Source of the DNA: an uncultured Nitrososphaerales archaeon
GTDB lineage: Archaea > Thermoproteota > Nitrososphaeria > Nitrososphaerales > Nitrososphaeraceae
Assembly: GCA_963695855.1 (NCBI GenBank)
Contig: CAVOHZ010000010.1
Location: 896,001-960,000, forward strand
DNA: 64,000 nucleotides
Reading direction: 5' to 3'
The translations under genes were made by a program, and so were the position numbers. Below are positions 28,267 to 47,539 of this stretch, piece by piece. Under the pieces are notes generated by a model. The model searched no databases, was not told the DNA's origin, and worked only from the letters and a program-made list of their open reading frames with translations. Numbering within the stretch: position 1 is the stretch's first letter; the number at the start of each line of letters is the position of its first letter.

Positions 28267-28387
28267 TCTAAAATTTAACCATAGGTATATAATAAATATT
28301 TTATTAATTGTGCACTAAAATTGAATGAAATCAACTTATTCTTTTCGTTTCAAGTTTGATGATATAAAAAATCTCAACGAAGTTGCT

Positions 28388-28410
28388 AAAAAGCTAAATA
28401 CAAGGTAGTA
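28388..28410 (+). repeat. Family D site truncated by IS630
   Basis: AAAAAGCTAAATACAAGGTAGTA ends at the TA target of IS630. Confidence 0.6.
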
Positions 28411-29534
28411 TACCAATTAAGATAAATATGCTTACTCACCTCCAACCAGGTAATTTCTCATATTCAGATTGAATCTTTTTGTTCTAAAATATGTAGATAT
28501 TTTAATTATGAAATCTGTAAATGAGCGATAGTATTGTAGGACAAGCAGATCGTTTTTGGCTATATTCCAGCATTCTTCCAGTACCATAAATTCTGGAGAT
28601 GCTGTTGGAAGATATACTGGAATCAGATCCTTTTTGTGTTTGTCAAAATATTGCAGTACCTTTTTTGATTTATAGTGTTGTTTTGCTTTATCCAGAAATA
28701 TATAACATTTTGGAAATTTTTTATGTATTTGTTTTAGATAATTAAGAAATGTATTTTCATCAAACCAGTCATATTGCCTGAACAGTTGTTTTCCTTCTAA
28801 ACTTGTGGCACCAAATAGAACTGACTCCTGATGATATCCATTAATTCTTACTACTGGTCTTTCATCTTTTCTTATCCAGACTCTTCTTACAAGAGAGTCA
28901 AAGAAAAAGAATGATTCATCAGTAGATACTACCGTGAATCCTTCTTGGAGATTATCCAGTATCTTGCTCTTTTTTAAAACCTTCTTTCTCTTCTTTTGGT
29001 GCAGTGTTTACATGTACTTTTCTTGGTACCTTCTGTTTGAATCCCCATCTTCGAAGTAATGTGTAAATGTAAATATGATGGTAGTGTATACCGCTTTCTC
29101 TGACTATGATATCATAAACCTGTTTTGTAGTCCATCCCTGTTTGCTAGACGACAGTTTATTTTTTATCTTGTATACTGTCTCTTCTGGTATATCTGGTGG
29201 TCTACCACTTTTTGATCTGTTTTTTAATCCTTCTATACCTTCTTCCCTGTACCTCTTTAACCAATCAGAAGCCCATGTTCTGCTTCTGTGGAGATCTCTT
29301 GCAACCTGTGCAGGAATATGTTTGTCATATACTACGTTTAACACAAGCAACATTCTTTCCCTTACACCTACATCAGATTCTTGTTTATACAGTTGCTCAA
29401 ATCTTGTTCTAGAAAGATTATTGCTCTCAATCAAATGATAAACTGTATGCTTCCTTTCTTAGCTAAATCTATTATTGTCTAAAGTGTATGACCATGATGT
29501 TAAATTAATGTCAGCATAATTATATTAATTGGTA
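28411..29534 (-). mobile_element. IS630-family IS (two-ORF, frameshifted transposase)
   Basis: Ends TACC...GGTA flanked by TA; orfA 28952..29434 (HTH) and orfB in the -1 frame with DES, LDKA and EEC catalytic residues; TTTTAAAAAAG at the junction. Confidence 0.9.
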
Positions 29535-29550
29535 TAGTATCACTATAAAA

Positions 29551-29590
29551 TTGGACTCTTATTTTTGCGCCGCTATCGGTATTATTCTCT
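29551..29590 (+). repeat. att-like site, family A
   Basis: TTGGACTCTTATTTTTGCGCCGCTATCGGTATTATTCTC. Confidence 0.72.
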
Positions 29591-29626
29591 ATATTCATTA
29601 TGGTAGAAGTTTTTGTTTGTATTTAT

Positions 29627-29812
29627 CTAATTTTCTATATTCTTGCCTTTCTTACTATTTAATATTATTGGAAAACCAAAAAGTAAAAGTAGTAAACCAA
29701 TCATTGGAACAAATATTCGAATGGAACTCTCTGTTATAGTTATAACTAATGGAATTACCAGCAAGACAGTACCTAACACCATAAAAATTATTCCTATTCT
29801 TCTCTGTTCCAA
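29627..29812 (-). CDS. Small two-helix membrane protein
   Basis: 61 aa with two hydrophobic helices; close paralogue at 50771..51007. Confidence 0.65.
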   Translation of the reverse strand: MEQRRIGIIFMVLGTVLLVIPLVITITESSIRIFVPMIGLLLLLFGFPIILNSKKGKNIEN

Positions 29813-29960
29813 TAAACTGCGTTATTTCACATGTTCTATAAAACAATATTTCATATTTGATAGAAAAGAAAAAGAGTTGTATTGAAATTTTTAGGTGATT
29901 CTATCGAACCAAATGAAGATTAGTCTATTATTGTACAATTATTTTACTTTCTAAGTTCCT

Positions 29961-30020
29961 AATGATAAAAGCTAAATACAATGTAGTAGAAGCCTACTGC
30001 ATGGAAGATTCTACTCCCGA
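29961..30020 (+). repeat. att-like site, family D
   Basis: AATGATAAAAGCTAAATACA-ATGTAGTAG-AAGC-CTACTGCAT-GGAAGATTCTACTCCCGA. Confidence 0.72.
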
Positions 30021-30509
30021 TGAACTACATGAATATGTACATGATCCCACCACTTAAAGTGATTATTCTCATTACAAATTTTAACATCTTATCTTTTAAA
30101 GATATTGATTCTGAATATTACAACAACAAGAAATTATTCTTTATTTTTTTGATTCTAATCCTCTTGATAGAATTCTAATCTGTAGAGTGCAAAGAACATT
30201 TAAGCTCTCATTTGGCCGTCATGCCATAAGGCATAGTGGCCCAAATCCATCTTATAACTATAAAATCTATATCTTCTGTTCCGCGGTTACGAAATTAATA
30301 GTTACGCAATCATGCAATTTATTATTACGAAATACACAGATTCACTTTTTTTGGTCTTGCGATATTTCAGCCCTTGCGCCACCACAGTAATTTCATTTTT
30401 ATTCTATTCTGTGATTCTTTGTGTGGTCTAAGGCATAGCAAAAAGCAGGCAAAAATCATTATAATAGGGGATAAAACTTATTAGCTGACTTATTTAAAAA
30501 TAGGTAGTG

Positions 30510-30946
30510 ATGAATTTTTTCATATTGATTGATTGTAAGTGGACTATTAGTTATGTTTTCTTCAAATATATATGCACAAAATGAACTAAATTTTCAATAT
30601 GAAAACTTTCCTAACAATTTAGCTGAAACCGTAGAAAAGGCGTCAGAAAATCCAAATAGTTCAGAAATGAAATTACTAGAATGTGTTACATATTCAAACA
30701 GTGCGGCAATTAAAGAATCACGAGAAATGTATAAGCAAACATGGTCTTAGATTCAATCTATAAATAATCGAAAGTGAAGAATTTTCTATGGATATAAAAA
30801 TAACCATAATTGCAGTCGAATGGAATGCAATAGATACTTTGAACTCACCAATACCATATCTAATTGATTTATGTGCTACATCATATGATGAAACAGGTAA
30901 ATTCCTACACGAAATAGATGAAATGGCTCAATTAAATAAGCCTTAG
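30510..30946 (+). pseudogene. Disrupted copy of secreted protein 8530..8961
   Basis: Near-identical DNA in inverted orientation; premature TAG at 30748-30750 and a frameshift after it. Confidence 0.85.
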
Positions 30947-30969
30947 AAAAAGTACACAAAAAAATGAGA

Positions 30970-31284
30970 CTAATATTGATTTGAGCTGAGAAGCCATTGT
31001 ATTAATTTGTAATTTCCCTCTAGCGTAAGCATCCAACTTACACAATCAATTTCCCTATCAATAAAATTTGCATCCTTCATTTCCATACAAGTTTTAATTC
31101 TCTGTTCGTGTGCTTCGGGTGGTGTTTGTTTAGTTTGTTTTATATGTTCATCAGTAAAGTCAGATAGTTTCATTCCTTTTTCTTCCATAAATTTAAAATC
31201 CTCTTCAGTAAGTAGGTCTACTGCACTACTATTTTGTGCCTTAGTAGAAGTGAAGGAAAAAAAGGTAATAGTTGAAACAAGCAT
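30970..31284 (-). CDS. Secreted hypothetical protein
   Basis: Signal-like N-terminus and two Cys; broken copy at 8149..8506. Confidence 0.72.
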   Translation of the reverse strand: MLVSTITFFSFTSTKAQNSSAVDLLTEEDFKFMEEKGMKLSDFTDEHIKQTKQTPPEAHEQRIKTCMEMKDANFIDREIDCVSWMLTLEGNYKLIQWLLSSNQY

Positions 31285-31413
31285 GATTATAAAGATTGAA
31301 GTAATTTTTATCTTGAACGTTAAGTGAAATTATCAACTAGTAATATTAAAAATGTTCTATGATAATGGATTATCTTTATAAAAAATTAAAAAAAATAAAA
31401 AAAATAGATTAAT

Positions 31414-31990
31414 TTAACAATTTACTCCTTCAAAATTTGGCTTACTGATTTAGATTGTATTTGCCATTTCTTCAACTATTGAAGAATATTTATCAATCTG
31501 CTTTATCGGGTTCATCAAAATTTAATTTATATTCTCTATCATATGCAATTATCAAAAGATGAAATCTGTGAAATTCAACTCCTTCCGAACTATCAGTATG
31601 AATAATTTTATAAGCAGGAAATCCGTTTATTTCTGTAATTCCTGAATCAATCAGAGTGGAACTTGGTAACAATGTCTCAAAACCTGTTTCTTCAGCAATC
31701 TCTCCAATTGAATATTTTGCAAGTCCAAAATTTTCTATTGCAATATCTAATCCATAAATGTCATTATCTGCAGATTGAAAATCAGCTATAGTTTTTGATT
31801 TATCTTCATATACATAATTATCTTCATATACATAATCTGATTTTTCACAGTCCAATCTTTAGGACATTGAATTCATATTCAACATTTTTCATTAGTATAT
31901 GTATTTTCTAATTCACAAAAGCCTTCGTCAAAGGATATTCCTAATACTAGCGATATAACAGCTACCAAAAGAATAAAAAATATTTTTATA
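31414..31990 (-). pseudogene. Frameshifted PsbP-like secreted protein
   Basis: Fragments including INGFPAYKI, REYKL and a C-terminus in another frame ending SKPNFEGVNC*. Confidence 0.6.
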
Positions 31991-32062
31991 ATATACGATT
32001 TGATCTAATCTGGTTACATAAAAATATTTATCATAATTGCCATGATATTATTGTAAATATGA

Positions 32063-32308
32063 CTATGACTCACATCCTATGCCGTCTCCATCACTATCAA
32101 ATCCATGCGGATCTGGTGACAAAACTGTAAATTTTTTATCTGAAATATCAGTACAATCAAGATCAGGTGGTGGAGACGGTATACATACATCTGGATAGGA
32201 AGAATCGCAGTTGTCAAATTGTGCTTCTGTCTTAAGAGAAGTGAAGGAAAAAATAGTTAGACTCAGCATCATTAACAATACAGAAATAATTGCTAGTATT
32301 GTTTTCAT
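32063..32308 (-). CDS. Secreted Excalibur-like calcium-binding protein
   Basis: Signal peptide plus CDSSYPDVCIP.PPPDLDC...DPHGFDSDGDGIGCE (DxDxDGxxCE). Confidence 0.85.
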   Translation of the reverse strand: MKTILAIISVLLMMLSLTIFSFTSLKTEAQFDNCDSSYPDVCIPSPPPDLDCTDISDKKFTVLSPDPHGFDSDGDGIGCES

Positions 32309-32690
32309 TGCTGGTTATAATTGAAAAGTAACAGTATAAAAAGAATGCTAAAAACTATGAAAACTTAATATTCTAACTTTGTTATATAATATACGCGCTC
32401 AAATTATTTTGGGCGTCGATAAAGTGAACGTCTGGATATACTGTCAACTATCTGGATGTTCACATATTTAAAAAAATTAGCTTGTAAATAATTACTTAAT
32501 TTATTATTGGGATTTTATAAAGAATATAGACATGAAGAGAATAGAATAATATATTTTTCTTACATTTTCTAATCTGTTCTAGTAGACAACCTTTACGTGA
32601 AAAGTTACTGCTTACCCTTTTGGTCGCTAGTTCGATTTATAATATGAAAATCAGATTTGAAAGAAAATAGTCATAATGTATTTTTTATTT

Positions 32691-33145
32691 TTACCATGGT
32701 TCTTTTTCGGTTTGTTGCACTGATTGATTAAATTCCTTAGCTAGTTTTCTAGCGTCAAATATTTGCCAGAACTATAAGCCAAAATATCCTATAATACCAA
32801 GAAAAATAATCATAGCTATGACTGGATCACCTCCGTATGATGAGAACAACCTAGAAAACAATATAAAGACAAGTATAACATAAGTGACTATACTAGAGAT
32901 TAGTAATATTATTCCTTTAGCCACCTGTCCAACATATATATGACCAAGCCTAATAAACCAAATAAACCTCCTATAATTGCTATTAGTGCTGCTGTTCCGG
33001 GACTTCTGTAAGGAAGCTGTGTTACCACAGAACTAGGAGGTCTGGAATCTTCTTGAAGATTGATAGCACATTTCGTATACGTAGAAATATCTTCATTTAA
33101 ATGAGCTGCTGACCACAATTTTTGCAGAATTTTGGTCTATTGGCC
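32691..33145 (-). pseudogene. TM2-like membrane protein, frameshifted
   Basis: RSPGTAALIAI..GL.GL(G)HIYVGQ.AKGI...WQIFDARKLA split across frames, with a stop. Confidence 0.65.
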
Positions 33146-33354
33146 AATCAAATATAACAAAAACAGTACGAAATAAAGATTTCTATTCGATCTATTTTAA
33201 ACATTATCCTTCCTCGCCAATCGCGTTTAAAACATTTAATATAAAAGGAAATTATTCATTGCTAGAACAAAAGTTAGTAATAGTAGGTAATAATCAAGCA
33301 AAATAAAGTGATAAATTGGCTCTGACGATATGAAAATCTTCTAGTATATTCCAT

Positions 33355-34762
33355 TACTGTATGTTGGCTAGGTTCAAACTTAACATACTCCGTATGAGAG
33401 TGAGGCTCTGACTGAACCGTATCTTATGAATGAATGAGTGGCTATCATAGTACCCTTAGAGGGTGAATGGATGTTTGCCACCTGTTAGCCAACAACAAGA
33501 ACTAAAAAAGAAGGTGAATGAAAAAGAAAATTGAATCATCTTGGAATAGATGTCGGAAAAAGAATATGCAGAGTAGCACTAAAAGATGACATGGGAAAGA
33601 TACAGGATGAATTCTTCTTTGGTAACAATTCTCAGGGAATATTAGAATTGATTAAAAGGACACACAGTCATGGAACAAAAAAATGTAATGCAGTACTGGA
33701 ATCTACCGGTAACATGTGGATGAGAATACATGATACACTGGAAGATAATGGAATAGATACTATACTTGCCAATCCATACAAGACAAAGATAATAGTACAA
33801 GCAAAGATAAAATCAGATAAACTTGATGCTTCTATATTATCTGATCTGCTGAGAACTGGATTGGTATACGAATCATATGTACCTGTAAAGGAATTCAGAG
33901 AAAAAAGGAGTCTGGTCAGACACAGGATAGTATTATCCAGAACCAAAACAAAACTAGCAAACAAGGTTCATGCTATTTTAGACAAATATGAATACAGAAC
34001 AGAACTGGCAGATATATTTGGAAAATCTGGAATTGAGTGGCTGAAATCACTGTCTGTTTCACCAATAGACAAAATAATACTGAATACGACACTAACATCA
34101 ATAGAATCTATAGCTAACCAGATAGAAATAGTATCAAAAGAGATAGCAAGATATGCCTGGCAAGATAGTCAAGATGTAAAGTTACTTCTAAGTATTACAG
34201 GTATAGACATATTTTCTGCAATGCTGATATCAACAGAGATAGTTGATATCACTAGATTCTCTACACCATGGAAACTTGTTAGTTATGCAGGATTGGCACC
34301 ATCTACAAGAGAGTCATCTGGAAAAATAAAAACAGGTAGAATAACAAAACAAGGTTCTCCATTGCTGAGATGGATACTAGTACAGTGTTCATTATCTGCC
34401 ATCAGACATGACCATCATATGAGAACATTCTATGAAAGAATCAAACAGAGAAAGGGGCATGGAAAAGCAATAGTTGCGACAGCAAAAGAAATGCATGTTG
34501 TAATATGGTACATGCTAACAAGACACCAATTGTATAGATACATGAACAAGACTAGATATGAGGAGAAACTAGAAAGACTGAAGAAGATCGGATCTCAATA
34601 AAGTAAAGGTAATTAGACAACAAAAAGACAATGACCTCTGAGAATAGGAACGTCATATATAGCGGAGGCTATTGTTGACAATGCTTAATAGATAGAAAGA
34701 CATAACAAAATAAGGCTGAACAGGATACAAAAGATAACCAGCATACATGTAGATTTTCATGG
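33355..34762 (+). mobile_element. IS110-family element (ends approximate)
   Basis: Recombinase ORF with about 170 bp 5' and 160 bp 3' of non-coding sequence; no terminal inverted repeats or target duplication seen, as expected for IS110. Confidence 0.75.
33531..34601 (+). CDS. IS110-family DEDD recombinase (transposase)
   Basis: GIDVG, LESTG and KSDKLD (DEDD); Tnp20 domain SITGI, SYAGLAPSTRESSG, GRITKQG, AIVATA. Confidence 0.95.
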   Translation: MNHLGIDVGKRICRVALKDDMGKIQDEFFFGNNSQGILELIKRTHSHGTKKCNAVLESTGNMWMRIHDTLEDNGIDTILANPYKTKIIVQAKIKSDKLDASILSDLLRTGLVYESYVPVKEFREKRSLVRHRIVLSRTKTKLANKVHAILDKYEYRTELADIFGKSGIEWLKSLSVSPIDKIILNTTLTSIESIANQIEIVSKEIARYAWQDSQDVKLLLSITGIDIFSAMLISTEIVDITRFSTPWKLVSYAGLAPSTRESSGKIKTGRITKQGSPLLRWILVQCSLSAIRHDHHMRTFYERIKQRKGHGKAIVATAKEMHVVIWYMLTRHQLYRYMNKTRYEEKLERLKKIGSQ

Positions 34763-34763
34763 A

Positions 34764-34859
34764 TGTTAAGTTAAGGAAAATTTATGAAATAAATTGAAAA
34801 ATTCTTTTGAAATTGAGCACAGAACATACCTATTACTTTATCCTTAAGTTAACAGGGCC
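34764..34859. mobile_element. Short IS6-derived MITE-like remnant
   Basis: TGTTAAGTTAAGG ... CCTTAAGTTAACAGGGCC; the right end resembles the IS6 right terminal repeat at 14414-14430. Confidence 0.5.
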
Positions 34860-34934
34860 CTATAAACCCGACATTTTTTTCTTTTTTTCTATAATTTATA
34901 AATCTATTACTCTAGCGATATTCTTTTAGTGTTA

Positions 34935-34967
34935 TTGAACTCAAGAGACTGTTCAACTCCCGACGGG
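34935..34967 (+). repeat. att-like site with a tRNA T-loop and 3' fragment
   Basis: TTGAAC-N10-GTTCAA inverted repeat overlapping GTTCAACTCCCGACGGG (T-loop, T-stem and partial acceptor strand). Confidence 0.65.
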
Positions 34968-35057
34968 TATGTTATAAATATAATTCATTTCACTTTTATA
35001 CGATTTTGTAATATTGATATATCAATAATTAAATTTGATATACGATAATAACATATC

Positions 35058-35468
35058 ATGAAATTTACAAAAATTATTGAAACCAGTATATATTCTTCCA
35101 ATCTAAAACAAATGAAGGATTTTTATATCGATATTTTGGGATTGGATCTTGTTTCAGAAGAAAAAGACAGACATGTATTTTTAAAAGCAGGAAAAAGCAT
35201 GCTTTTAATTTTCAATCCTAACAATACATTAAATAAAATCAATGATATTTTTCCGTCTCATGGGGCATTTAGTCCTCCTTCTATAATACATTTTGCCTTT
35301 GAAATAAAAAGAGAAGATTATGAAAAATGGAAGTCTCTTTTAAAAGAAAATAAAATCAGTATTGAAAAAGAGAAGAAATTTGGGAAGAGCAAATCAATAT
35401 ATTTTCGCGATCCAGTTGGCAATATGGTTGAATTCATAACCTCTAATGCTTGGCCAGTGGATGATTAA
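35058..35468 (+). CDS. VOC / glyoxalase family protein
   Basis: IIETSIY..NL..MKDFY.DILGL, HFAF, SIYFRDP.GN.VEF. Confidence 0.92.
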   Translation: MKFTKIIETSIYSSNLKQMKDFYIDILGLDLVSEEKDRHVFLKAGKSMLLIFNPNNTLNKINDIFPSHGAFSPPSIIHFAFEIKREDYEKWKSLLKENKISIEKEKKFGKSKSIYFRDPVGNMVEFITSNAWPVDD

Positions 35469-35659
35469 TAATCTATTTATTTTTATTTTATACTTATTGG
35501 CATGGAGCTTTGGTTTTTCATCAGAAAAGATTTTGGAACTGGTGAGAGGTTTTTTGGACAAGATTCTTTCAACAAGATAACAAAAGTTAAGTATTGACGT
35601 TTGTTGAAATCTAATTTTAAAAATTGGTCATATCTTCTATTATGACAGGTTACATTATA

Positions 35660-35691
35660 GAGGCAAAAATGCCTCTCAACCCGACTCCCCC
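35660..35691 (+). repeat. att-like site, family B
   Basis: GAGGCA-AAAA-TGCCTC-TCAA-CCCGAC... Confidence 0.72.
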
Positions 35692-35855
35692 ATATAGAAA
35701 TTGAGAAGTAAAAACGTTAATTCATTCTGATATGTTACTAATTGGTGAAGAAATAAAATCTGATTTTATACAGAAACTGGTAATACCACATTCAATTATT
35801 TCAAAGAAAGGAGAAAATGGAATAATTATGACCTGCCCTCAAAAAATGATAGGTA

Positions 35856-37154
35856 TTATTTGTGGATATATAAGTTCAATACAGCCTTTTCATTATCCCC
35901 GTTTATATTGTCTATAATAAGTTTAGGATTATTAGAAATATCTTCAGGGAATGAATATTGAAATGCAAATGTACCAAAAGAAGATTTTTGATTTTCTGTA
36001 TAAATTATCTTATTTTTATCCTCTACTACAAAATCAAAACTAGAATGTCTTACCAAATCTCCTATTTTAGGATCTTGTAAATTCATAATAAAATTAATAG
36101 GAGTTGATGGAGTTATTAAGGAAGGATTCCAAGAAATTTGAACTAAAAATTTTTCGTTAGATGTTAAAATATCTAAGGGAAATTGTGGTTTCTCTACGGT
36201 ATATAATTTAAATGAAGTAGGAATTTGGTTATTAGTAATATCAATATCTTGGGAGATTTGTCGAGATAATTGATCCAATTGATCTTTATTTAGAACTAAA
36301 TGAATAATGCGTGAATTTAGATCTGAATAGTCATCTATGATCAGGGATCTTGTTGGAAGATTCTTTTCAAATATCAAACCGCCATAACTATTAGTATTAG
36401 AAATGTCAAGTAGTTTTGGTATTACAAATTCAATGTGCAAGTATTCCATTTGTTGTATGTATATCGGGTTCCAATTGAATGGCATTTCAAATGCTAATGT
36501 ATTATTTTCCTTAACATAGTTAATATTTCTTAAAGAATCATAATAACTTTTAATTATACCATTGTTTTTTTCTTCAGTGGTGTCTTGTATGTTGAAGTAA
36601 TGATCTTCACCTATACTTATGAATAAGTCAACTACTATATCATTTTCTAATGCTAATCCTCCACTTGGTTTTTTAAAAGTAATAGATAGATGATATAAAC
36701 CACCCTGTGAGAGAATTTTACTTGTTATTTCAAATCTATCATTTTGTTTGATATTTTGTATACAATCTATAGAATTTAATTGGATACCATTCTTAGAAAT
36801 AATAGCCTCAGTTATGTTTATTGCAATAAGTTTAGAATTAAAAAGACCAGCGCTAGATTTGATACATAGATTTAAAAATAATTCTTTATCTGAGAAAATT
36901 TTTATATCATAATCCAAATCAGAGATTGTTTGATTAGTCAACTGGTCATAAATCCTTAATAAAAATTTCGGATCAGTATAATCAATAGAGTTATTAACAT
37001 ATGCAGGCTCTAATTTTGCTTCTACTACAATTTTTTTACCAGGCACATCAACTGGATTGGAAATATCTGTACTAAGACCATGTCCATTAACTTGGATATA
37101 GGAAATTTTAAAGAGGATTAAGAATATGAATATAAAAATACCAATAGAATTCAT
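35856..37154 (-). CDS. Secreted hypothetical protein (thaumarchaeal type)
   Basis: Signal peptide followed by HGL; GGLYH, SYYD, FEMPFNW, H.EF.IPK and IDDYS...RIIHLVL segments. Confidence 0.78.
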   Translation of the reverse strand: MNSIGIFIFIFLILFKISYIQVNGHGLSTDISNPVDVPGKKIVVEAKLEPAYVNNSIDYTDPKFLLRIYDQLTNQTISDLDYDIKIFSDKELFLNLCIKSSAGLFNSKLIAINITEAIISKNGIQLNSIDCIQNIKQNDRFEITSKILSQGGLYHLSITFKKPSGGLALENDIVVDLFISIGEDHYFNIQDTTEEKNNGIIKSYYDSLRNINYVKENNTLAFEMPFNWNPIYIQQMEYLHIEFVIPKLLDISNTNSYGGLIFEKNLPTRSLIIDDYSDLNSRIIHLVLNKDQLDQLSRQISQDIDITNNQIPTSFKLYTVEKPQFPLDILTSNEKFLVQISWNPSLITPSTPINFIMNLQDPKIGDLVRHSSFDFVVEDKNKIIYTENQKSSFGTFAFQYSFPEDISNNPKLIIDNINGDNEKAVLNLYIHK

Positions 37155-37392
37155 TTTTAAATAATGAATAAGATAAAAACAACGATATTAATAAATTTCG
37201 AAAATAGCAAGTCTAGAATATGTATTTGTATATAAAAAGTTCTAAAATAAATAATATAAAAATGATATATTTACAATAACAAAAAAATCATCTATCTATA
37301 CGTAAGGAGACAAGTCTTTAAAATTTGTGGAATAAAATTTTTAATATTGTAATTTTTTTATTAATTATTCTTAAGAAATAAATAACAAAATA

Positions 37393-37426
37393 GAGGCAAA
37401 AATGCCTCGCAACCCGACGGGCCCGT
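37393..37426 (+). repeat. att-like site, family B with intact tRNA-like 3' core
   Basis: GAGGCA-AAAA-TGCCTC-GCAA-CCCGA-CGGGCCC-GT. Confidence 0.8.
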
Positions 37427-37722
37427 ACGTTTCTAGGGCCCAGCACCTAGGATTATATTAATAGAGTATTCCAATATTATCAAACTTTTAAAAACTAGGC
37501 TATAAGGAAACAAACTGTGAGACATTTGCTGAAGCATTAAAAAAGCAGTTTAAATACTTTATTGTTTTCATCTTGTTTTTATATGCTATCAATTAATTAC
37601 CATTGTTATCATTTACTTTTCACTCATCATCGAAAATATCATTTAAATTACCTAGATTATTCGATTTGGTACATTAACAAACAAAACAAAATCTTTTAAC
37701 AAGTTTATATTATTGATAAATA

Positions 37723-38019
37723 TTGGATAGAGAAAAAATTCTTAGAAACTTATTTAATAAAGCCACTGAAGATACAATAGAAACTCTACCTTATACAATT
37801 CAAGTATTTCAGAACCCTTCATATGATCTAAAGAAAACAGTAACGAATGATTTGGATTTTCTTTTAGGGGCATTTTTTGGACAGGTAATTTTGTTTTATT
37901 CTGTTTATTGTTCCAACAAAGATATGAAGCCAACAATTGAAGAATCAAATCAATTTAATTATGAATTATTTTCGAAGGCAGAAGAATACAAAACTATTAT
38001 CAAAGAATTAATGGTATGA
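37723..38019 (+). CDS. Hypothetical protein
   Basis: 98-aa ORF lying alone between two att-like sites. Confidence 0.65.
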   Translation: MDREKILRNLFNKATEDTIETLPYTIQVFQNPSYDLKKTVTNDLDFLLGAFFGQVILFYSVYCSNKDMKPTIEESNQFNYELFSKAEEYKTIIKELMV

Positions 38020-38178
38020 AAATACTTAAAAGAATCAACTCTAGGAAAACAATATGGTCAGGTTTTTTTAGACAACACAAAACATCGGAAATAGCCAAAA
38101 TCTAAAGAAATTACACTAATCTTTTAAAAATATGTATTCAAAAGTAAATCATAAATGTTATCTCTTTACTACCATACA

Positions 38179-38228
38179 TTAGACTCTAATTTTTGCACCG
38201 CTATCGGTGTTACTCCCGACGGGCCCGT
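38179..38228 (+). repeat. att-like site, family A with intact tRNA-like 3' core
   Basis: TTAGACTCTAATTTTT-GCACCG-CTAT-CGGTGT-TACT-CCCGA-CGGGCCC-GT. Confidence 0.82.
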
Positions 38229-38270
38229 GCTGATATAAGTGCTAAAATTATGTTCTTTACAATTTACTAT

Positions 38271-38822
38271 TTAGTATTTTTTTATTATATAAACTAAAGA
38301 ATTTCTATAACTATTTGAGATAGTATGGTATTCATTTACTTTCTTTGTCTTTACAAAACCATTTTTTTCCAAAACTCTTATAGAAGGTTTATTTTCTGGA
38401 AAAACATAAGCTGAAATCTCTTTCAATCCCAATACGTCAAATGCGTAGTTAACCACTAGTTCAATACATTCTGTTGCTATGCCTTTGCCATGATATTGTT
38501 GACCTATCCAGTAACCTATATTTGCTTTTTTATTAACATAATCAATATCTTTAATAGCTATAATTCCAACTAGTAGACGAACTGATTGAAATTTATTTTT
38601 ATAGTCTATAGCAAAAGTTATTGATTTATGTAGCCTAAAATCATCACAACTAGATTTAATAAATTTTAAAGCATCATCTATCTTATAAGGATATGGAACT
38701 TCATAAAGATATTTAGCTATATCATAACTCATAAGATTTACTATATTTGTAACATCATCCATCGAAGGTTCTCTTAAATTGACTAGCTTACCAGATAATT
38801 GTGGAAAAGATGAATTAGTCAT
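38271..38822 (-). CDS. RimJ/RimL-family GNAT N-acetyltransferase
   Basis: ANIGYWIG..YHGKGIATE, YAF..LGL..I.A.V...N..SIRVLEKNGF. Confidence 0.92.
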   Translation of the reverse strand: MTNSSFPQLSGKLVNLREPSMDDVTNIVNLMSYDIAKYLYEVPYPYKIDDALKFIKSSCDDFRLHKSITFAIDYKNKFQSVRLLVGIIAIKDIDYVNKKANIGYWIGQQYHGKGIATECIELVVNYAFDVLGLKEISAYVFPENKPSIRVLEKNGFVKTKKVNEYHTISNSYRNSLVYIIKKY

Positions 38823-38950
38823 CTGCTACTTGTTTTATTATACCACAAAATGCTATATTTAACTAACTTCTACCTTTAGCAAGATAGTATATAATTTTAA
38901 TATATGTTGTTAGAACTTTAAATTAAAATAAGAGCTGTATTTGGAAGTTA

Positions 38951-38985
38951 GATTAGTAACAAATTTGTTATTCAAAAGACCCTTA
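38951..38985 (+). repeat. att-like site, family C (degenerate core)
   Basis: GATTAGTAACAAATTTGTTATTCAAAAGACCC; TAACAAATTTGTTA is a perfect palindrome. Confidence 0.65.
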
Positions 38986-39031
38986 CCATCTGATTTTGGC
39001 TGAATTCTTTTTGAGCGTCAGAATTCTGTAA

Positions 39032-40595
39032 CTATTTGAGTACCTCTGTGACTTTTTTACCATCTTTTGTCCATGATGTTATCTCTTTTTTACCATCAGG
39101 ATATTCTGTAATTACTTGATTATCTTTTGTTGTGGTAATTTTTGTTTCTTCTCCTTTGGACCCGAAAAGTATTGTTTCAGTTGTACCATCAGGAAGTATT
39201 TTTTCAATTTTGTTATCTGTTTTCGTAATTTTACCTGCTGTTATTCCTGAAATTTTATACTCTGTGACACTTAATCCTGGTTTCTCATATTTGCTTTCCA
39301 CAAGGCCGGAAGGATTTACAATATATTCTTTTTTTGTATCTCCCTGTTTTATTTGGTAAACCTTTGTACCATCTGTTTCTTTGTAACTATACCAGTTATC
39401 ATAAGTATGCTGACAATATTTTACTATCTTGTATTATCTTTTAGATCAGAATAGCTATTAGCTGATACTATAAACATGATATCTTATTGACTAGTACAAT
39501 ATCTAAAGCAAGATTTGAAAAACTATACAGATCTGAACATGATACTAATGTAAAGGAAAGAATGCTAATTGTGTTGAACGTAGTATATGATAAACAGATT
39601 CCTGCACAGGTAGCAAGAGATCTTCATAGAAGCAGAACATGGGCTTCTGACTGGTTAAAGAGGTACAGGAAAGAAGGTATAGAAGGATTAAAAAACAGGA
39701 CAAAGAGTGGCAGACCACCAGATATACCAGAAGAGACTGTATATGAGATAAAAAACGAATTAGCATCCAGTAAACAAGGATGGACTACGAAACAGGTAGA
39801 AGATCTAATAGTAAGGAAGAGTGGTGGAATCAGATACCATTATACACATATTTACAGACTAATGCACAAGTGGGGATTCAAACAGAAGGTACCAAGAAAA
39901 GTGCATGTGAACACAGCATCAAAAGAAGAGAAAGAGGATTTTAAAAAAGAGCAAGAAAGGTACTGGATACTCTCCAGCAGCAGCATCAGCAAGAAGGATT
40001 TACAGTAGTATCTACAGATGAATCATTTTTCTTCTATGATTCACTTGTCAGGAAAGTATGGATAAACAAGGATGAAAGACCAGTTGTAAGGATTACGGGG
40101 TCACATCAGGAGTCAGTTCTATTTGGTACCACAAGTCTGGAAGGAAAACAGATGTTCAGGCAATATGACTGGTTTGATGAAAACACATTTTTAGATTATC
40201 TAAAACAGATACACAGAAAGTTTCCAAAATGTTATCTGTTTCTGGATAAAGCAAAACAGCACTACAGATCATATAAGGTACTACGATATTTTGATGAACA
40301 CAAACAGAATCTAATTCCAATATATCTTCCAACAGCATCTCCGGAATTTATGGTACTGGAAGAGATATGGCATATAGCCAAAAACGATCTGCTTGTACTA
40401 CAATACTATTCATCCTTTACAGATTTCAAAAATAAAATATCCTCGTATTTTAAGACAAAAAGATTCTGTCTTGATATGAGACACTATCTGTTGGGAGGTG
40501 TCAGCTAACATATGCTAGATGGTATAGTTGTCGTCTTACCATCAGGATATTCTATGATTATATGATCATTATAACTAGAAAAGATATTTTCGGTC
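39032..40595 (-). pseudogene. Repeat protein with (Y/L)PDG turns, split by IS630
   Basis: Removing the IS and one TA rejoins IIEYPDGKTT/SYKETDGTKVYQIKQGDTKKEY... into listed ORF 39032..39301. Confidence 0.7.
39390..40524 (+). mobile_element. IS630-family IS (orfA 39487..40008 plus orfB to 40508 via -1 frameshift)
   Basis: Terminal repeats TACCAGTTATCATAAGTATGCTGAC / GTCAGCTAACATATGCTAGATGGTA; TA duplication; TTTTAAAAAAG slippery site; TDES, LDKA, EEIW. Confidence 0.92.
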
Positions 40596-40978
40596 ACCTT
40601 GAGTATTGTCCATTTGGCCAAATCTAATCTTCTATTATTCTACAAATTAAAACAATTATGAATTAAAATTTTTAATCAAATTTTTTAAGGTATTACTTAA
40701 CTCAGGATTAATGCTTAGAGAAATAATCAACTTATAGAGATACCAACTATAGTATCATAAATATGTTAAATCGCATAAAAATAGATGAATATTGTTCTAG
40801 TCAGAAAATCAGCAATAACTATATCTTAAACTATTCTTCAAAAGAAAAAAAATAATTCCCAGGTTCTAATTTTCACTTCCTAAAAGGACATAATAGTTAT
40901 AAATAGCAAAATTTTGTACCTGATAAATCATATTATCAATTTATTAATACTTATTAACAGTAGAAAATATTCCGGTTT

Positions 40979-41701
40979 ATGAGTGACTATCAATCTAAGA
41001 ATATATCAAATAAAAGTAATAAAGCAAAATTTAGTGTAAAACATAAATATTTAGTAGAAATTGTAGGCACTTTTATTCTAGTTTATGCCATTGCATCTGC
41101 TGCTACTGTTTATTCAGACAGTGGGCAATTAGGAGTAATTGGAATAGGATTGGTACATGCACTGGTGTTAACAGCAATAATATATGCTATTGGTTATCGT
41201 TCTGGTGCTCAAGTAAATCCTGCTGTTACAATCGCTTTATTAGTAGCAAAAAAAATTGGAAGAAAAGAAGCAGTATTATACATAATTTGTCAGCTAATTG
41301 GAGCCGTAATAGGAGCTGCTGTTGTTTACGCAATGTTTGGTTCTGCAATGTCGACAAGTGTAACGTTACCCTCAGACAATAACATATTGAGAGCGTTTGT
41401 ATTAGAAACAGTAATGACATTTACTTTGGTATATGTAGTTTTAGCTACTACTACTGCTAAAAATTTTAAAATTGCACCCTTAGCAGGAGTTGCAATAGGT
41501 TTTACGCTAGGATTTAATGTTATTTTGGGTGGATCTATCACCGGTGGTTCTCTTAATCCAGCTAGATCATTTGGACCTGCATTGATGACTGGGAATTTTG
41601 ATTATAATTGGCTTTACTGGATAGCTCCGATCATAGGAGGTCTGATCGCAGCAGGTGTGTATAAAGCATTACATCGTGATTCAGAACTTCCCTCAGAATA
41701 G
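40979..41701 (+). CDS. MIP-family channel (aquaporin)
   Basis: SGAQVNPAVT and GGSLNPARSFGP (two NPA motifs); six transmembrane helices; WLYWIAP. Confidence 0.96.
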   Translation: MSDYQSKNISNKSNKAKFSVKHKYLVEIVGTFILVYAIASAATVYSDSGQLGVIGIGLVHALVLTAIIYAIGYRSGAQVNPAVTIALLVAKKIGRKEAVLYIICQLIGAVIGAAVVYAMFGSAMSTSVTLPSDNNILRAFVLETVMTFTLVYVVLATTTAKNFKIAPLAGVAIGFTLGFNVILGGSITGGSLNPARSFGPALMTGNFDYNWLYWIAPIIGGLIAAGVYKALHRDSELPSE

Positions 41702-42303
41702 CAAAGGACCAAGGATAATACGCATTAAAACTCTCCGTCCTATCCAACAAAAATTTATCATAGAGCTAATCATCATGGAATGAAATTCGTGTATCTCTTT
41801 TTCATTTTAAATCAAAATAACGTATGAAAAAATCATAGAAAAAATCGTCATAATTTTGGCTCTGTTCATTTGATTCTTTTTTTAAGAATCATTCTATTGT
41901 GTATGTCAATAAACAAGATTAACCAATGCATTATATGTTGTAAATTGCAGTTGTATATTCTACAGGGAAAATAATCATCAAACCCTTCAGTTCTGTCCAA
42001 AGATGTCCTTTCGAGAAAATAAATGTAATTTTATTAGGATTATGAAGAGTATAATTTACCGTCTTTTCAAATTTAGTAGATTTATAAGAACCCTTTTTAT
42101 GGCCAAAGTATTTAATTTTGTAAAATTGTTGTTATCTTATTTGCCTTTCTAATTTGAAATTTATTAAATACCTTTTATAATGAAATTAGAGACAATACCG
42201 GACCTGCTAAAAAATACGTCATTATCTTAATTTTAAATATCTGATCTTAACAAATAAGTTTTGTATTAAATCTTTATTACAAAATCTAATATCGTATAGT
42301 TTA

Positions 42304-42864
42304 ATGGAAAAACATCAACTATCATCAAAGATAGGTAGATTATCAATACTTGCTGCAATAATGTCAGTAATAATGCCATCTGTTTATGCAATAGACGATG
42401 AGGATAAGAAAGATTTATGTCAAGACTATGGAGGAGACTGGGAAGGAGTAGCTTGTGATTTTGAAACAGATGATGAAGATAATGCAGATAAATTTACTGA
42501 TGAGCTTCAAAAATTAGATGAATTTGAGGATGACAAGGCAGCTCTTGAAGATGATTTATGTGATGATGAAGATGCAGAAGAGACAAACATCGATATATGT
42601 CAATCTGCTACATTAGCTTTTGCATCTACAGATTCAGAGGAAGATGAAGATGAAAAAGAAGATAATCAACCTAATACAAAAGAAGAAGATGAACAGTTTG
42701 CAAAAGAATTGTGTGAAAGTGAGACCTATAAGGGAGAATGGAAAAACGGTGAATGTACTAATTTCCCAGGTGGTCAGTCTTCAGCCTCCATAGGTTATGG
42801 AGATGAATGTGAAAGCAGTGATTTTCAAAAGAAGCATCCTTACTTTTGCAAAGTAACTGACTAA
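42304..42864 (+). CDS. Secreted acidic, Cys-rich hypothetical protein
   Basis: Signal peptide; very D/E-rich; two C...G.W....C motifs. Confidence 0.75.
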   Translation: MEKHQLSSKIGRLSILAAIMSVIMPSVYAIDDEDKKDLCQDYGGDWEGVACDFETDDEDNADKFTDELQKLDEFEDDKAALEDDLCDDEDAEETNIDICQSATLAFASTDSEEDEDEKEDNQPNTKEEDEQFAKELCESETYKGEWKNGECTNFPGGQSSASIGYGDECESSDFQKKHPYFCKVTD

Positions 42865-43215
42865 CTATCAAACCTTCTTGAATGAGGACTTTATGTAATT
42901 CATTTCTAATTTTTTTTAGCCTAAAACCATTTTTTATTATTGTTAAAAAAAAGGTATCGTTATAATCTGATTAATTTTATAACTATTAAAAAGTATTAAA
43001 TGGAAAATAAGTTCTAGCTCCTTCAAAAATTAAATTAGGTACCTAACAATTATAAATCTTGAAAACTCATGAGGAAGTATATTTCTACTTCTGTCTTCAA
43101 AATAAAAATTTTGCAAATATTGCAGAAATATAATAGCTTTAGAATTGAATATTTTTCCATCCAAATGGTCTTTATTTTAAATTATAAATAGTTTAGAAGA
43201 TGAAATAATATTATT

Positions 43216-43497
43216 ATGGGAGCTTTCAAATCAAGGAGAAATTATAATACTTTTTTTCATAAGAAGAATAGATGGGATTTTGGTAAATATTATAGAGAAG
43301 GTTCCCGCTATCATCAGGTAGTATCATCTGGGTATTATACAAATCAGATATGAAGAGCTTTAAACAAATGTTGGGTAGGATACATGATAGCTATCAATAA
43401 ATGGGAATTTGATAAAGAAATTATGTATGCTAAAAGAATACAAAAGTTACAAAGTGAATTAGGGTTGCAAGTATCAGAGTTTGCGTGTTTAACCTGA
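43216..43497 (+). pseudogene. Paralogue of 16128..16385 with one internal stop
   Basis: RRNYNTFF...*RALNKCWVGYMIA..KWEFDKEIMYAKRIQKLQSELGL. Confidence 0.7.
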
Positions 43498-43700
43498 TTA
43501 AGGTTTACTCAGATCATCTTTATAAGAATATAGTCAAAGATATTGATAAGAAAATCTTACTCTTGTTATACATAAAAATACGTTAGATATATCTTTGGAG
43601 AGTATTTTTATAGATCTTCTTAACTTTATAGACTACATCATTAGGTCTCAGCTTTTGCATTACTTCCTTTAAAATTGTAATATAGTTTGGCTTGGCTTGA

Positions 43701-44462
43701 TTAATTAAACTCCGTCTTAGAATCATCTTGATACTTTAGGTAAGTATCTATGATCTTGTTGATTTTATTTTGATCATCCTCAGGTCTTACCAATTTTGCG
43801 ATATTCAACACCTTTCTAATATCTTTTTCACCTTTCTCAAGTAACAATTGTGCAATCAATGCTGATAAAATCGAAGGCAGATAGAACTTTGATATAAGTA
43901 AAGTAACACAAATTTTAATGAATTCTCTATCAGAATATTCTGGCAACGTATAGATACTAAATCTTGATCTGAAAGGTTTGGTTAACCTTTCTATGCTATT
44001 TGATGTCGCAAATATCTTTGGATTATCCATTTTAAATTTGACTCTGGTCTCTTTTTTTGTTATATTTACTTCTCCAGTCTCTAAAAGATTATAGAAAACT
44101 GCTTGATCCTTTCTGTTTATTTTATCAATTTCATCAATGAGAATTATTCTTGCATTTCTATGATTTTCTAAATCATGTATAATTCCTGGTCCACTACTGT
44201 TAGCAGCATCATAATATATACAATCATTCACCTTTTCATGTATGCATTCTAATAAGAGGGATTTTGCCGTAGCTGGAGGTCCTACAAGTAAGATGTTTAC
44301 ATTATGTTCTGATACTATTCCTCTATACAGAATTTCCTTTAGATCATTATATGAATAAATTTCGGCGAAAAAATCTAAAGCCTTTTCTTCTAATCTGTAA
44401 ATATGTGGTTGCTGTTTTTGTTCATGTCTTGAATTATCTTTTCTGAAGGAATGAAATATCAA
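43701..44462 (-). CDS. AAA+ ATPase (stand-alone, MCM/RuvB-like)
   Basis: Walker A variant LLVGPPATAKS, Walker B ILIDEIDK, LLETG, ATSN sensor 1, SRF arginine finger. Confidence 0.85.
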   Translation of the reverse strand: MIFHSFRKDNSRHEQKQQPHIYRLEEKALDFFAEIYSYNDLKEILYRGIVSEHNVNILLVGPPATAKSLLLECIHEKVNDCIYYDAANSSGPGIIHDLENHRNARIILIDEIDKINRKDQAVFYNLLETGEVNITKKETRVKFKMDNPKIFATSNSIERLTKPFRSRFSIYTLPEYSDREFIKICVTLLISKFYLPSILSALIAQLLLEKGEKDIRKVLNIAKLVRPEDDQNKINKIIDTYLKYQDDSKTEFN

Positions 44463-44886
44463 TATACAAACTATATAGAAGTTTATTATTTAGATATAGT
44501 GTTTTCAATGCTATTTTATATCCATGGTTTCAGCTGAATTTGCACATTCTAATATTTTTCTATAGAAAGAATACAAAAGTTGTGAATTCATCCAGTTTGT
44601 TGTTTAAAAAAGAGATTTTCTTCAGGATAATCAATTCGATATTCCGTAATTCTATTAATATTATTATTTGTTGGGAAAAATTTAAAAAGAAAAAAATTTT
44701 ATGAGGAAGTACACTAGTAATTTTCTTGCCGGAAAAAATATTTTAAAAAATATATTTGTATCAGGTGTAAATTGCATGATGTATTAATTTGAAGTTAGAA
44801 CTGAAAGAATTATGTTATGTATTTTTCCAATAAGCTTATACCAAAAGTTTAATTTTTTAATAACTTTCAAGATCATAAAATAATAA

Positions 44887-45158
44887 ATGAGGGCTCTACA
44901 GGAGGAATTACAATACATTTTTCATAAAACATGATTTGATCCTTGAAGTATTATAGAGAAAGCCAGAAGTATCATGAAAGATTACCATCCGGGTACCACG
45001 TAAATCGGACATGAGGTGCTTTACATAAGGCATGAGTGGGCTACTGGATAGCCAGAGATAAATTGGAACCTGATAAGGAGATTTATTATACAGAAGTAAT
45101 CCAAAAGTTGCAAAAAGAATTTGGGTTAGAACTCTTAGAGTTTGAATGTTTATCTTGA
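44887..45158 (+). pseudogene. Degenerate paralogue of 16128..16385
   Basis: Colinear DNA similarity with several stops and indels. Confidence 0.75.
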
Positions 45159-45205
45159 ATATAGATAGTGGGAGTTAAGTAAAAAAGCACTTAATATCAG
45201 GTTAT

Positions 45206-45478
45206 CTAATTTCTCATGATTTTGGTACATTCTTTATCTTCATCCATTACATGTAGATCAAGAATTATTGATATCACATTTTCAATATCACGAATACGGG
45301 ATTTAATATGCTGGAATTCATCTTTGATAGAATTTAGGTGATAGTTTTTTTGAAAAATAGAAGAAATAGCAATATTTTGGATTCGTTCTGATTCAGTATT
45401 CCCTGACAATTGCAGATCTTTATTGATAGTATCCAGAACATCTTTTGGAAGTGAAATTTTTAGGATCTTAGCCTCCAT
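45206..45478 (-). CDS. Putative ribbon-helix-helix (CopG-like) protein
   Basis: KISLPKDVLDTINKDL..SGNTESERIQNI; N-terminal half shared with 16456..16758. Confidence 0.55.
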   Translation of the reverse strand: MEAKILKISLPKDVLDTINKDLQLSGNTESERIQNIAISSIFQKNYHLNSIKDEFQHIKSRIRDIENVISIILDLHVMDEDKECTKIMRN

Positions 45479-45665
45479 TTTAATAAATTATTGCGTTTAA
45501 AGTTTTATTATTTTCAATACGATCTTTTTCCTATTTTTTTAAAAAAAATCATGTTGTTTGCTGAGCATAAGCTATGTAAATTATTTTTTTATTGATATTA
45601 TTGGAAATATTTCTAAAATTAATTATTAATATTTAATAGCATCTTCCTGTTATTGAATAATTGAG

Positions 45666-45932
45666 ATGAGTGACATTGATATTTGGCAAAAAGAGTTCTG
45701 GAATCGATTGAATCAACAAATGCAAGAAAATTTTAAAAAACAAATGGAACTTACACAAGAACAGGTAAAAAAACAAATGGAACTTACACAAGAACAGGTA
45801 AAAAAACAAATGGAATTTACACAAGAACAGATAAAAGAACAATTGGAATTTACAGGAGATCTGGTAAAAAAACAATTGAATATACAGAAGGACAGCCAAG
45901 AAGATCAGAAGAAGAAGCTAAAAGATCGATAA
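45666..45932 (+). CDS. Small coiled-coil protein with 11-residue repeats
   Basis: Paralogue of 16947..17201. Confidence 0.7.
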   Translation: MSDIDIWQKEFWNRLNQQMQENFKKQMELTQEQVKKQMELTQEQVKKQMEFTQEQIKEQLEFTGDLVKKQLNIQKDSQEDQKKKLKDR

Positions 45933-46112
45933 AAGTGGCTATGAAAAATGGAGACTTTTCTTAATCAACATAATCCAACATTAGCAATGATAGAATTTGA
46001 ACAAGCAAGATTTTTAAGAAATTTCTTGAGAGAGTGAAATTTCCCTTTATTTTTATTAATTTAAAATAATTAAAAAATAAATCTTTAATATTATTATCTT
46101 TATTACCATATA

Positions 46113-47524: not shown

Positions 47525-47539
47525 TACTATAACACAATA

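Follow-up and report, generated by a model that had tools for sequence, protein, structure and literature searches.

A co-oriented array of small, mostly integrase-less modules around a tRNA-Lys-derived core in a soil ammonia-oxidising archaeon: probable serial accretion

Introduction

Four genes, coding for a VOC/glyoxalase-fold protein, a 432-aa protein, a 98-aa protein and a GNAT acetyltransferase, lie between short repeated sites at positions 34,935 to 38,985 of a 64,000-nt stretch of an uncultured Nitrososphaerales archaeon (GCA_963695855.1; the whole stretch, C10:896001-960000 in our contig numbering, is henceforth the window), and their layout raises the question of which recombination system assembled them. 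A preliminary description, made from the letters alone, had taken them for four cassette-like modules bounded by five att-like sites, likened their cargo to that of integrons, and regarded them as the most cassette-like and best-preserved part of a longer array. The genome (G000; 3.55 Mb in 11 contigs, ~31% G+C) carries archaeal amoA and belongs to a soil ammonia-oxidising archaeon; we compared it with 24 relatives, for a total of 25 genomes of the genus, and with 16 genomes from other families. On the strength of these comparisons and of metagenome searches, we consider it probable that small integrative modules, mostly cassettes lacking an integrase, form a co-oriented array here, of which this stretch is the densest portion and which grew by serial integrase-mediated accretion.

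Sites with a core derived from the 3' end of a tRNA-Lys gene

Of the five sites proposed earlier, those at 34935, 35660, 37393 and 38179 are real (Table 1). As the preliminary description had it, the sites keep one orientation, all four being on the + strand, and each interval holds one substantial gene, with the gene strands running +, -, +, -. Its two intact cores are likewise borne out: the 14-nt core CCCGACGGGCCCGT is exact at 37413 and 38215, both on the + strand, with no other match in the window at up to two mismatches and with matches in 0/100 shuffles. Partial cores occur at the other two sites, viz., CCCGACGGG at 34959 (0.36 expected) and CCCGAC at 35680, the latter behind the same 17-nt left arm as precedes 37413. 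The fifth site, at 38951, we reject: it has no core, both genome-wide nhmmer searches left it unreported, and, in alignments to arms A, B and D, 40%, 64% and 37%, respectively, of random 131-nt windows do at least as well as its best local match. Across the window we count 11 sites, 11/11 on the + strand and all between 17.4 and 49.8 kb; the stretch studied here is the densest and, as described earlier, the best-preserved part of this array.

The 14-mer has 11 exact copies genome-wide, one of which is the 3' end of a tRNA gene at C8:2734-2821 that ARAGORN calls tRNA-??? and that, read by eye, is a tRNA-Lys(UUU) with an intron after position 37. The core comprises the T-stem 3' strand CCCGA, the acceptor 3' strand CGGGCCC and the discriminator G, and the match at site 34959 extends to 17 nt, with the T-loop included. 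By sequence comparison, then, the core is a copy of the tRNA-Lys(UUU) 3' end, which makes C8:2734-2821 the predicted cognate attB. This gene was found in 20/25 genomes of the genus, at 22 loci. Four of the 22 run out of contig no more than one base from the core, and at all 18 readable loci (18/18) the sequence diverges right after ...CCCGACGGGCCCG into six types of downstream arm: the R1 arm (TAGTTTTCTAGGGCCCAC-like) at 5/18 loci, an IntK-proximal arm accompanied by an integrase at 4/18 (G000, G016, G021 and G010), the R2 arm (TGCTGATATGAGTGCTAAAAT, the type that starts the GNAT module) at 3/18, and an R2 variant, an inverted arm-B-like and an inverted arm-A-like sequence at 2/18 each. The inverted arms suggest that some attP sites could be inverted repeats around the core.

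We picture each junction as a hybrid att site, in which a left arm of ~30-40 nt (type A, B, C or D) would derive from the upstream module and the right arm from the downstream one, with the core between them. When 80 site windows are compared with each other, similarity stops within the first 10 core bases in 910/1737 in-register high-scoring segment pairs, a result that is partly circular because the sites had been defined by their arms. The palindrome of arm A, ACCG-CTAT-CGGT, shows 0 compensatory double changes in 43 distinct copies; since it varies without compensation, it looks like a putative protein-binding site rather than a folded attC.

On the upstream side of the tRNA-Lys gene, the neighboring gene in most relatives (L049-L064) is homologous to contig-end loci of G000 that lie off C8 (C11:2911-3792 and C1:646-1527), and G000, G019 and G014 have another upstream flank in common, with an insertion sequence (IS) there in G000. 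This differing flank points to a rearrangement at the locus in the G000/G019/G014 lineage.

Table 1. Sites, modules and neighboring features (window positions unless a contig is named)
Feature	Position	Strand	Description
Site 1	34935..34967	+	Hairpin arm D, then GTTCAACTCCCGACGGG, 17 nt equal to the T-loop and T-stem 3' strand of tRNA-Lys(UUU)
VOC cassette	34968..35685	+	Right arm TATGTTATAAAT..., gene, left arm B, CCCGAC
VOC/glyoxalase-fold gene	35058..35468	+	136 aa; Glyoxalase/VOC PF00903
Site 2	35659..35685	+	Arm B (AGAGGCAAAAATGCCTC + TCAA), then CCCGAC; remaining core missing
432-aa gene	35856..37154	-	Hydrophobic N-terminus; no Pfam family
Site 3	37385..37446	+	Arm B, full 14-nt core (37413-37426), R1-type right arm (ACGTTTCTAGGGCCCAGCAC)
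98-aa cassette	37427..38228	+	802 bp between two identical 14-nt cores
98-aa gene	37723..38019	+	No Pfam family
Site 4	38176..38228	+	Arm A (39 nt, palindrome ACCGCTATCGGT inside) and full core; both ends sharp in metagenome contigs
GNAT module	38229..38875	-	R2-type right arm (GCTGATATAAGTGCTAAAAT); left end exactly at core
GNAT gene	38271..38822	-	183 aa; Acetyltransf_3
IntK (L039)	C8:2892-4235		Divergent tyrosine integrase, 448 aa; start 71 nt after tRNA-Lys
Arm A site, arm C site 122 nt later	17389..17556	+	1.2 kb to the left duplicated at 44.9-46.1 kb, 77-98% identity
Arm A site, 430-bp module, arm C site	29546..30021	+	Same module at C8:22974 and C8:295724, 91-93% identity
Arm A, degenerate core, integrase-proximal-type right arm	46109..46161	+	No integrase after; IS630-like element instead
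Arm A, degenerate core, R1-like arm	47536..47589	+	nhmmer match
Arm A broken off after GGTATTA	49721..49760	+	Next module holds IS5-type transposase (49865-50761)
tRNA-Val(GAC)	12036..12110	+	Left edge of variable island
Variable island	12111..53690		Synteny with G019 and G014 broken between tRNA-Val and ~53690
Second-type integrase, N-terminal fragment	12156..12569	+	121 aa aligned (12186-12548), 51% identity; no Pfam match
IS110-family insertion sequence	33318..34828	+	Transposase 33531-34601; inserted in module left of site 1

Modules that end at the core in different contexts

The VOC and 98-aa modules are found in relatives in other contexts and orders, together with their sites, the pattern that the preliminary description had proposed to look for. 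Against two copies in G014 (94-95% identity), the homology of the VOC module runs from 34947 to 35685 and ends exactly after CCCGAC. Its left neighbor is arm D at four loci (the window, G014 twice and G019:C68) and arm A at G019:C6, its right side shows three different continuations after CCCGAC, and exact core ends are seen in five contexts. The 98-aa cassette offers an occupied and empty pair: at G019:C58 an arm B and core equivalent to 37281-37426 are joined directly to the GNAT module (38215-38862) and the cassette is absent, such that G000 and G019:C58 differ by exactly 802 bp, core to core. Since arm B on one side and arm A on the other are unrelated sequences, the difference is unlikely to stem from homologous recombination. 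The homology of the GNAT module begins at base 1 of the core, and most of its other copies extend into a further conserved segment that is missing in the window. The idea that all four modules are att-bounded thus stands as regards the recombination sites and the VOC and 98-aa modules, but not for the 432-aa gene, whose conserved block falls short of the sites, nor for the GNAT module, which has no validated right end.

All 24 relatives of the genus match the 4.1-kb stretch and 0/16 genomes of other families do. The four genes do not form a fixed syntenic block: they match separate contigs in 24/24 relatives and the block was never seen. A 24-kb contig (G019:C58) bears 12 co-oriented sites and has modules in common with the window in a different order. 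As for the gene products, the VOC protein matches Fos-type thiol transferases weakly, far under the cut-offs; the 432-aa protein has hypothetical proteins as its nearest Atlas clusters, whose members of known phylum are mostly Nitrososphaerota; and the 98-aa protein scores 0.86-0.87 to hypothetical Nitrososphaerota clusters in the Atlas, which is a lead only.

A candidate integrase beside the tRNA-Lys gene

The gene that directly follows the tRNA-Lys gene in G000 encodes IntK, a divergent tyrosine integrase. It has 1692 database homologs, many of which are named integrase or XerD by JGI and several of which come from Nitrososphaeraceae or Ca. Nitrosocosmicus records, and one 71%-identical homolog has a precomputed PF00589 match. 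NCBIfam gives it a single match, to archaeal XerA, at 20.6 bits where the cut-off is 220. R179, K207, Y295 (in place of the first H), R298, W320 and Y330 are invariant in 16/16 aligned homologs. Beyond the catalytic tyrosine lies a C-terminal CxxC...CxxC zinc ribbon, unusual for tyrosine recombinases, whose four cysteines are also invariant in 16/16. Many homologs sit on contigs of just 1.5-6 kb.

A paralog with 80% identity (C8:291544-290264) lies behind arm A, the core and the same right arm, and modules with an integrase as their only gene recur: one of 2277 bp, core to core, holds this paralog (C8:289347-291624), and another of 1692 bp occurs in L095. A genome-wide search with PF00589 returned 12 matches, 0 of them in the window.

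Arrays across the genome, the genus and soil metagenomes

A census of G000, with thresholds of nhmmer E<=0.01 for arm A and E<=0.1 for the core and with arms B and C found by pattern, gives 81 sites, a few of which (e.g., C3:25999) look like chance. They cluster at about C8:2.8-45 kb (behind the tRNA-Lys gene), C8:177-220 kb, C8:258-316 kb and C3:68-88 kb and in the window, and the median length of same-strand intervals of up to 5 kb (n=41) is 1733 bp. Among the cargo found outside the window are SDR, a purple-acid-phosphatase-like protein, a CDF efflux protein, a luciferase-like monooxygenase, Fic, USP, a histidine kinase, cyclases, several family-less open reading frames (ORFs) and IS elements. 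The arm A 21-mer is present in 25/25 genomes of the genus (1-72 copies) and in 0/16 of other families, and its reversed control pattern is found 0 times.

An independent sample comes from metagenomes, in which arm A with the full core occurs at 73 sites on 72 contigs; IMG/VR viral contigs gave 0 matches to arm A + CCCGAC. To the right of the core, 55 of the 73 sites have an R1-like arm, 11 the IntK-proximal arm, two variants of the latter, and five an inverted arm B; IntK follows 8/11 of the IntK-proximal arms. On contigs with several sites these are co-oriented in 34/34, with 46 gaps of median 1377 bp. Counting ORFs of >=70 aa in 34 non-redundant modules, 17 have one, 12 have two, four have three or four and one has none. 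Pfam families were assigned to 8/20 cargo ORFs: two alpha/beta hydrolases, a cyclase with a receiver domain, a SnoaL-like protein, a histidine kinase, an MFS transporter, a receiver domain and a helicase.

No sequencing run contains more than 0.41 of the words of 34900-39000. When contigs of four runs are aligned to the window, depth spikes over 38020-38220 (211-525, vs 8-68 in neighboring cassette bins), and in the four runs loose contig ends with different continuations lie at 38176 and 38228. A joint that goes back from 38225 to 37430 is seen in 2/4 runs; its shorter side is just 30-34 nt and it may stem from another arm A/R1 site. We discount two skip joints whose sides are too short: that from 34916 to 37415 has 24 nt, that from 35027 to 36204 has 21 nt.

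Further peculiarities concern the arms themselves. Some arm A copies end at GGTATTA, 2 nt short of the usual junction (29546-29586, 49721-49760, C8:22934, C8:296190, C8:21759 and C8:30379), and run into either of two recurring sequences, TTCTCTATATTCATTATGG... or ATCATGTCATAA...; these break-offs may reflect a second crossover position or a diverged core. Arm C with the usual right arm (e.g., 17524-17600 and 29989-30060) presents two direct copies of GTAG..GAACCCTA around the core, which may be arm-type binding sites of another element family with the same CCCGAC core; the arm C region, with ~10 copies genome-wide, is also readable as a 17-codon ORF behind a TATA-like box. Directly upstream of arm A in the window is a ~100-nt non-coding element (38028-38128) that is 82-89% identical in many genomes of the genus, above the neighboring genes. 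It has two copies in G000, the other being at C6:184114-184190, and in G012 it lies between a VOC gene and arm A; an extended att arm and a small RNA are both conceivable identities for it. The 1.2 kb that ends in arm A at 17428 and its copy at 44.9-46.1 kb diverge directly after arm A.

Serial accretion and its alternatives

The mechanism that we favor would begin with circular modules bearing arm-core-arm (attP-like) sites, which IntK-type integrases would insert either at the tRNA-Lys 3' end or at whichever copies of the core are already present. As each insertion would duplicate the core, arrays would grow head to tail. The recombinase would be IntK, encoded directly after the tRNA-Lys gene and again in a module of nearly 2.3 kb, and strand exchange would presumably fall within the 14-nt core. 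Most modules, the four studied here included, carry one or two cargo genes and no integrase; they would accordingly depend on an integrase in trans, and we infer that they still move by such mobilisation. IS insertions and deletions would later erode the modules. The tRNA-Lys-type array inside a tRNA-Val island (see below) is most simply guessed to stem from insertion into a core brought by an earlier element. Much of what is expected of accretion at a tRNA gene is found: the core is identical to part of the tRNA, an integrase adjoins the cognate tRNA (outside the window), and core-bounded inserts have occupied and empty forms between species (98-aa and VOC modules).

Several observations weigh against this mechanism. 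The array at C8:2.8-43.7 kb abuts the tRNA-Lys gene but that of the window does not, its single tRNA being tRNA-Val(GAC) rather than the cognate tRNA-Lys; nor did tblastn find an IntK homolog in the window. The cores of sites 1 and 2 are truncated. Around the 432-aa gene, the conserved block (35791 to 37231) ends 105-160 nt short of both sites, and the homology among GNAT copies stops at ~38875, neither at 38951 nor at any site. Of the 43 distinct arm A copies, no more than about half precede a recognisable core, the rest diverging after TTA, ACT, CCC or CCCGAC, and such heterogeneous divergence points imply that simple site-specific recombination does not account for many of the junctions. 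The tRNA-Lys loci compared include no demonstrably empty attB. The R1 arm might be the native tRNA-Lys trailer (B') or a cassette arm, the latter being more likely given at least 15 R1 arms in one genome. IntK scores 20.2 bits against PF00589, below the cut-off of 27.1, it has no PDB relative by sequence, and its catalytic roles were assigned to alignment columns by eye, without a structure. Finally, the comparisons are all among species representatives, not strains.

These points lend some weight to an alternative that we consider unlikely but that fares best among the rivals, namely a graveyard of plasmids or viruses that, at full size and with their integrases, integrated in tandem at tRNA genes and were then cut down by deletions, IS elements and homologous recombination between arms; the one-gene modules would be leftovers that were never mobile units and are not mobilised in trans. 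The island is indeed rich in IS elements (IS110, IS5-type, IS630-like and IS240-like), it holds debris such as the truncated integrase at 12156-12569, the truncated cores at 34959 and 35680 and an AAA/MCM-like ATPase fragment at 43701-44462, and the off-site boundaries of the 432-aa and GNAT modules and the heterogeneous junctions after arm A would follow naturally; tandem integration and integrase-less integrated elements are, moreover, described in archaea in the text of PMC8371274 and PMC6563490. Decay of this kind would hardly keep both ends of the VOC module in five contexts with different neighbors, or remove exactly one core-to-core unit at the 98-aa module, or yield recurrent integrase-only modules (2277 bp and 1692 bp). 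It also sits poorly with a 39-nt arm that is conserved across the genus alongside genes of 70-85% identity and that has sharp ends in metagenomes, and with a module size of ~1.4-1.7 kb in two independent samples. We retain accretion of small integrative modules as the better reading of the locus.

Far less probable is that the host chromosome-dimer resolvase (XerA-type), rather than an element integrase, acts here at dif-like sites, as in the pdif modules of Acinetobacter plasmids. Such Xer/dif modules have two inverted 11-nt arms around a 6-nt spacer and alternate in orientation. The core does hold a perfect 10-bp palindrome, ACGGGCCCGT, a second GGGCCC is supplied ~11 nt away by R1 arms, and the one, very weak NCBIfam match of IntK is to archaeal XerA; but the core is the tRNA-Lys 3' end with integrases adjoining, the arms are long and element-specific, and the sites are co-oriented instead of alternating (11/11 in the window, 34/34 multi-site contigs).

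The integron reading of the preliminary description, including its variant as an integrase-less attC cluster (CALIN), is effectively refuted. attC sites are imperfect inverted repeats with R''/R' cores, conserved in structure and not in sequence. One gene per interval, co-oriented sites and cargo of the VOC and GNAT type do recall cassettes, but we find no IntI beside the array, no attC-like sites, and no shared gene orientation of the kind that a common promoter would serve: sequence conservation marks the sites, around a tRNA-derived core, the arm A hairpin has no compensatory changes in its 43 distinct copies, and gene strands alternate. Canonical IntI with attC has been reported in archaeal metagenome-assembled genomes (preprint 10.1101/2022.02.06.479319), though the main text of that preprint (its supplementary tables being outside the scope) is without Nitrososphaer* or Thaumarchaeota. 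Chance similarity or an assembly artefact can be practically dismissed, for although the assembly is in 11 contigs with near-identical GNAT copies on C1 and C9, the 14-mer occurs in 0/100 shuffles and the same sites recur in 24 other genomes and 72 metagenome contigs.

The variable island and its edges

Backbone synteny with G019 and G014 covers 1-7603 plus the tRNA-Val gene and resumes from ~53690, which is why we regard 12.1-53.7 kb as a variable island. The tRNA-Val gene is the sole match of an Rfam scan of the window. Its syntenic counterpart in G019 (C14; L065:2420-2496) differs in the whole T-arm, with GTTGG...CCGAC in G000 against CACGT...ACGTC in G019, a difference that would fit a 3' part supplied by an integrated element in one lineage. 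A repeat of the tRNA-Val 3' end as the far boundary of the island is rejected, as its 20-mer at up to three mismatches matches the gene alone. The fragment that opens the island belongs to a second type of integrase, a full-length 406-aa copy of which sits after the tRNA-Lys gene in G022.

A second copy of the IS110 element, 99.3% identical, is at C8:48394-49907; the possibility that it targets att sites, as IS1111 does attC, is rejected, the flanks of five copies having no common target. Two 299-aa ORFs (10662-11561 and 49865-50761), suspected to be integrases from their position, turned out to be IS5-type DDE transposases. Besides these, the IS-rich island has three IS630-like copies with split or truncated transposase frames (helix-turn-helix + DDE_3) at 39487-40508, 46496-47508 and 28952-29434, and an IS240-like transposase at 13761-14423. 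Tandem repeats occur as five 153-nt units (span 24525-25404) within a 459-aa ORF (24151-25530), as runs of a 33-nt unit in two duplicated modules (16971-17225 and 45690-45911), and as seven 18-nt units in non-coding DNA (26612-26791).

Significance and comparison with known systems

The mobile elements of ammonia-oxidising archaea are poorly known and have so far been described as large integrated units. The present system, found genus-wide and on many soil metagenome contigs, comprises some 80 small cassettes in each genome; its arms and 14-nt core are defined, and its integrase and attB can be identified. It would account for much of the flexible genome of soil nitrifiers and would explain why assemblies break after the tRNA-Lys gene. 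The cargo (VOC, GNAT, SDR, hydrolases, transporters and signalling proteins) suggests niche adaptation. We know of no genetic tool for these organisms, for which so simple a site-specific recombination system would be a candidate. Going further, it is possible, if well short of assured, that the genus runs a tRNA-anchored functional analog of the integron, in which dozens of one- or two-gene cassettes, pooled across species, would be served by a minimal cassette of 1.7-2.3 kb made up of the integrase with arm A, core and right arm. The pooled cassettes would each have a ~70-nt attP-like site centred on the tRNA-Lys 3' end and would be shuffled between several arrays of a genome, some of them far from the tRNA. 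If true, this would give slow-growing nitrifiers a fast route to accessory functions.

With integron arrays the system has in common the co-oriented recombination sites between mostly single genes, cassettes without a recombinase of their own that would be served by a tyrosine recombinase in trans, accessory cargo, and a cassette pool common to several species. It differs in having no IntI, attI or common promoter, in conserved arms and a tRNA-derived core in place of structure-defined attC hairpins, in mixed gene orientation, and in a tRNA gene as its docking site. Accretion of streptococcal integrative and conjugative elements provides another parallel: in the cis-mobilisable elements, integrase-less att-flanked DNA stands in tandem with an integrase-bearing element and is mobilisable by it; these are bacterial and conjugation-linked, with few elements per site.

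The additive flexible genomic islands of Alteromonas are, by the account in the text of PMC4898812, hotspots beside a tRNA gene with cassettes variable in number and nature, whose order is uncoupled from phylogeny. They likewise gather cassettes beside the tRNA and have similar cargo (transporters, two-component systems and hydrolases); the present system belongs to an ammonia-oxidising archaeon, its modules are mostly of one or two genes (~1.4 kb), each with one of a few conserved arms of 30-40 nt, and it has ~80 sites per genome, arrays also off the cognate tRNA, and a recurring integrase-only module. Tandem integrations and integrase-less integrated elements at archaeal tRNA genes, as the text of PMC6563490 and PMC8371274 presents them, similarly involve a tyrosine integrase, an attB within a tRNA gene, which may contain an intron, and arrays made by re-use of one site; att cores are short in both, with a median of 17 bp in Thaumarchaeota against 14 nt here. 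Those elements are complex multigene units of kilobases to tens of kilobases, and arrays of dozens of one-gene units with common arms are not described in the portions of these two texts that were available for comparison, the word "Nitrosocosmicus" having 0 occurrences in PMC6563490 (its Table S2 of att sites being outside the scope). Nor did a search of the literature, including titles and abstracts on Nitrosocosmicus mobile elements (supplements outside the scope), find a published description of a tRNA-Lys cassette system. Taken together, these parallels suggest that the system works like serial integrase-mediated accretion at a tRNA att site and is integron-like in layout alone; what looks new is the miniaturised, arm-defined format of its cassettes, their number and genus-wide spread, and the minimal integrase module.

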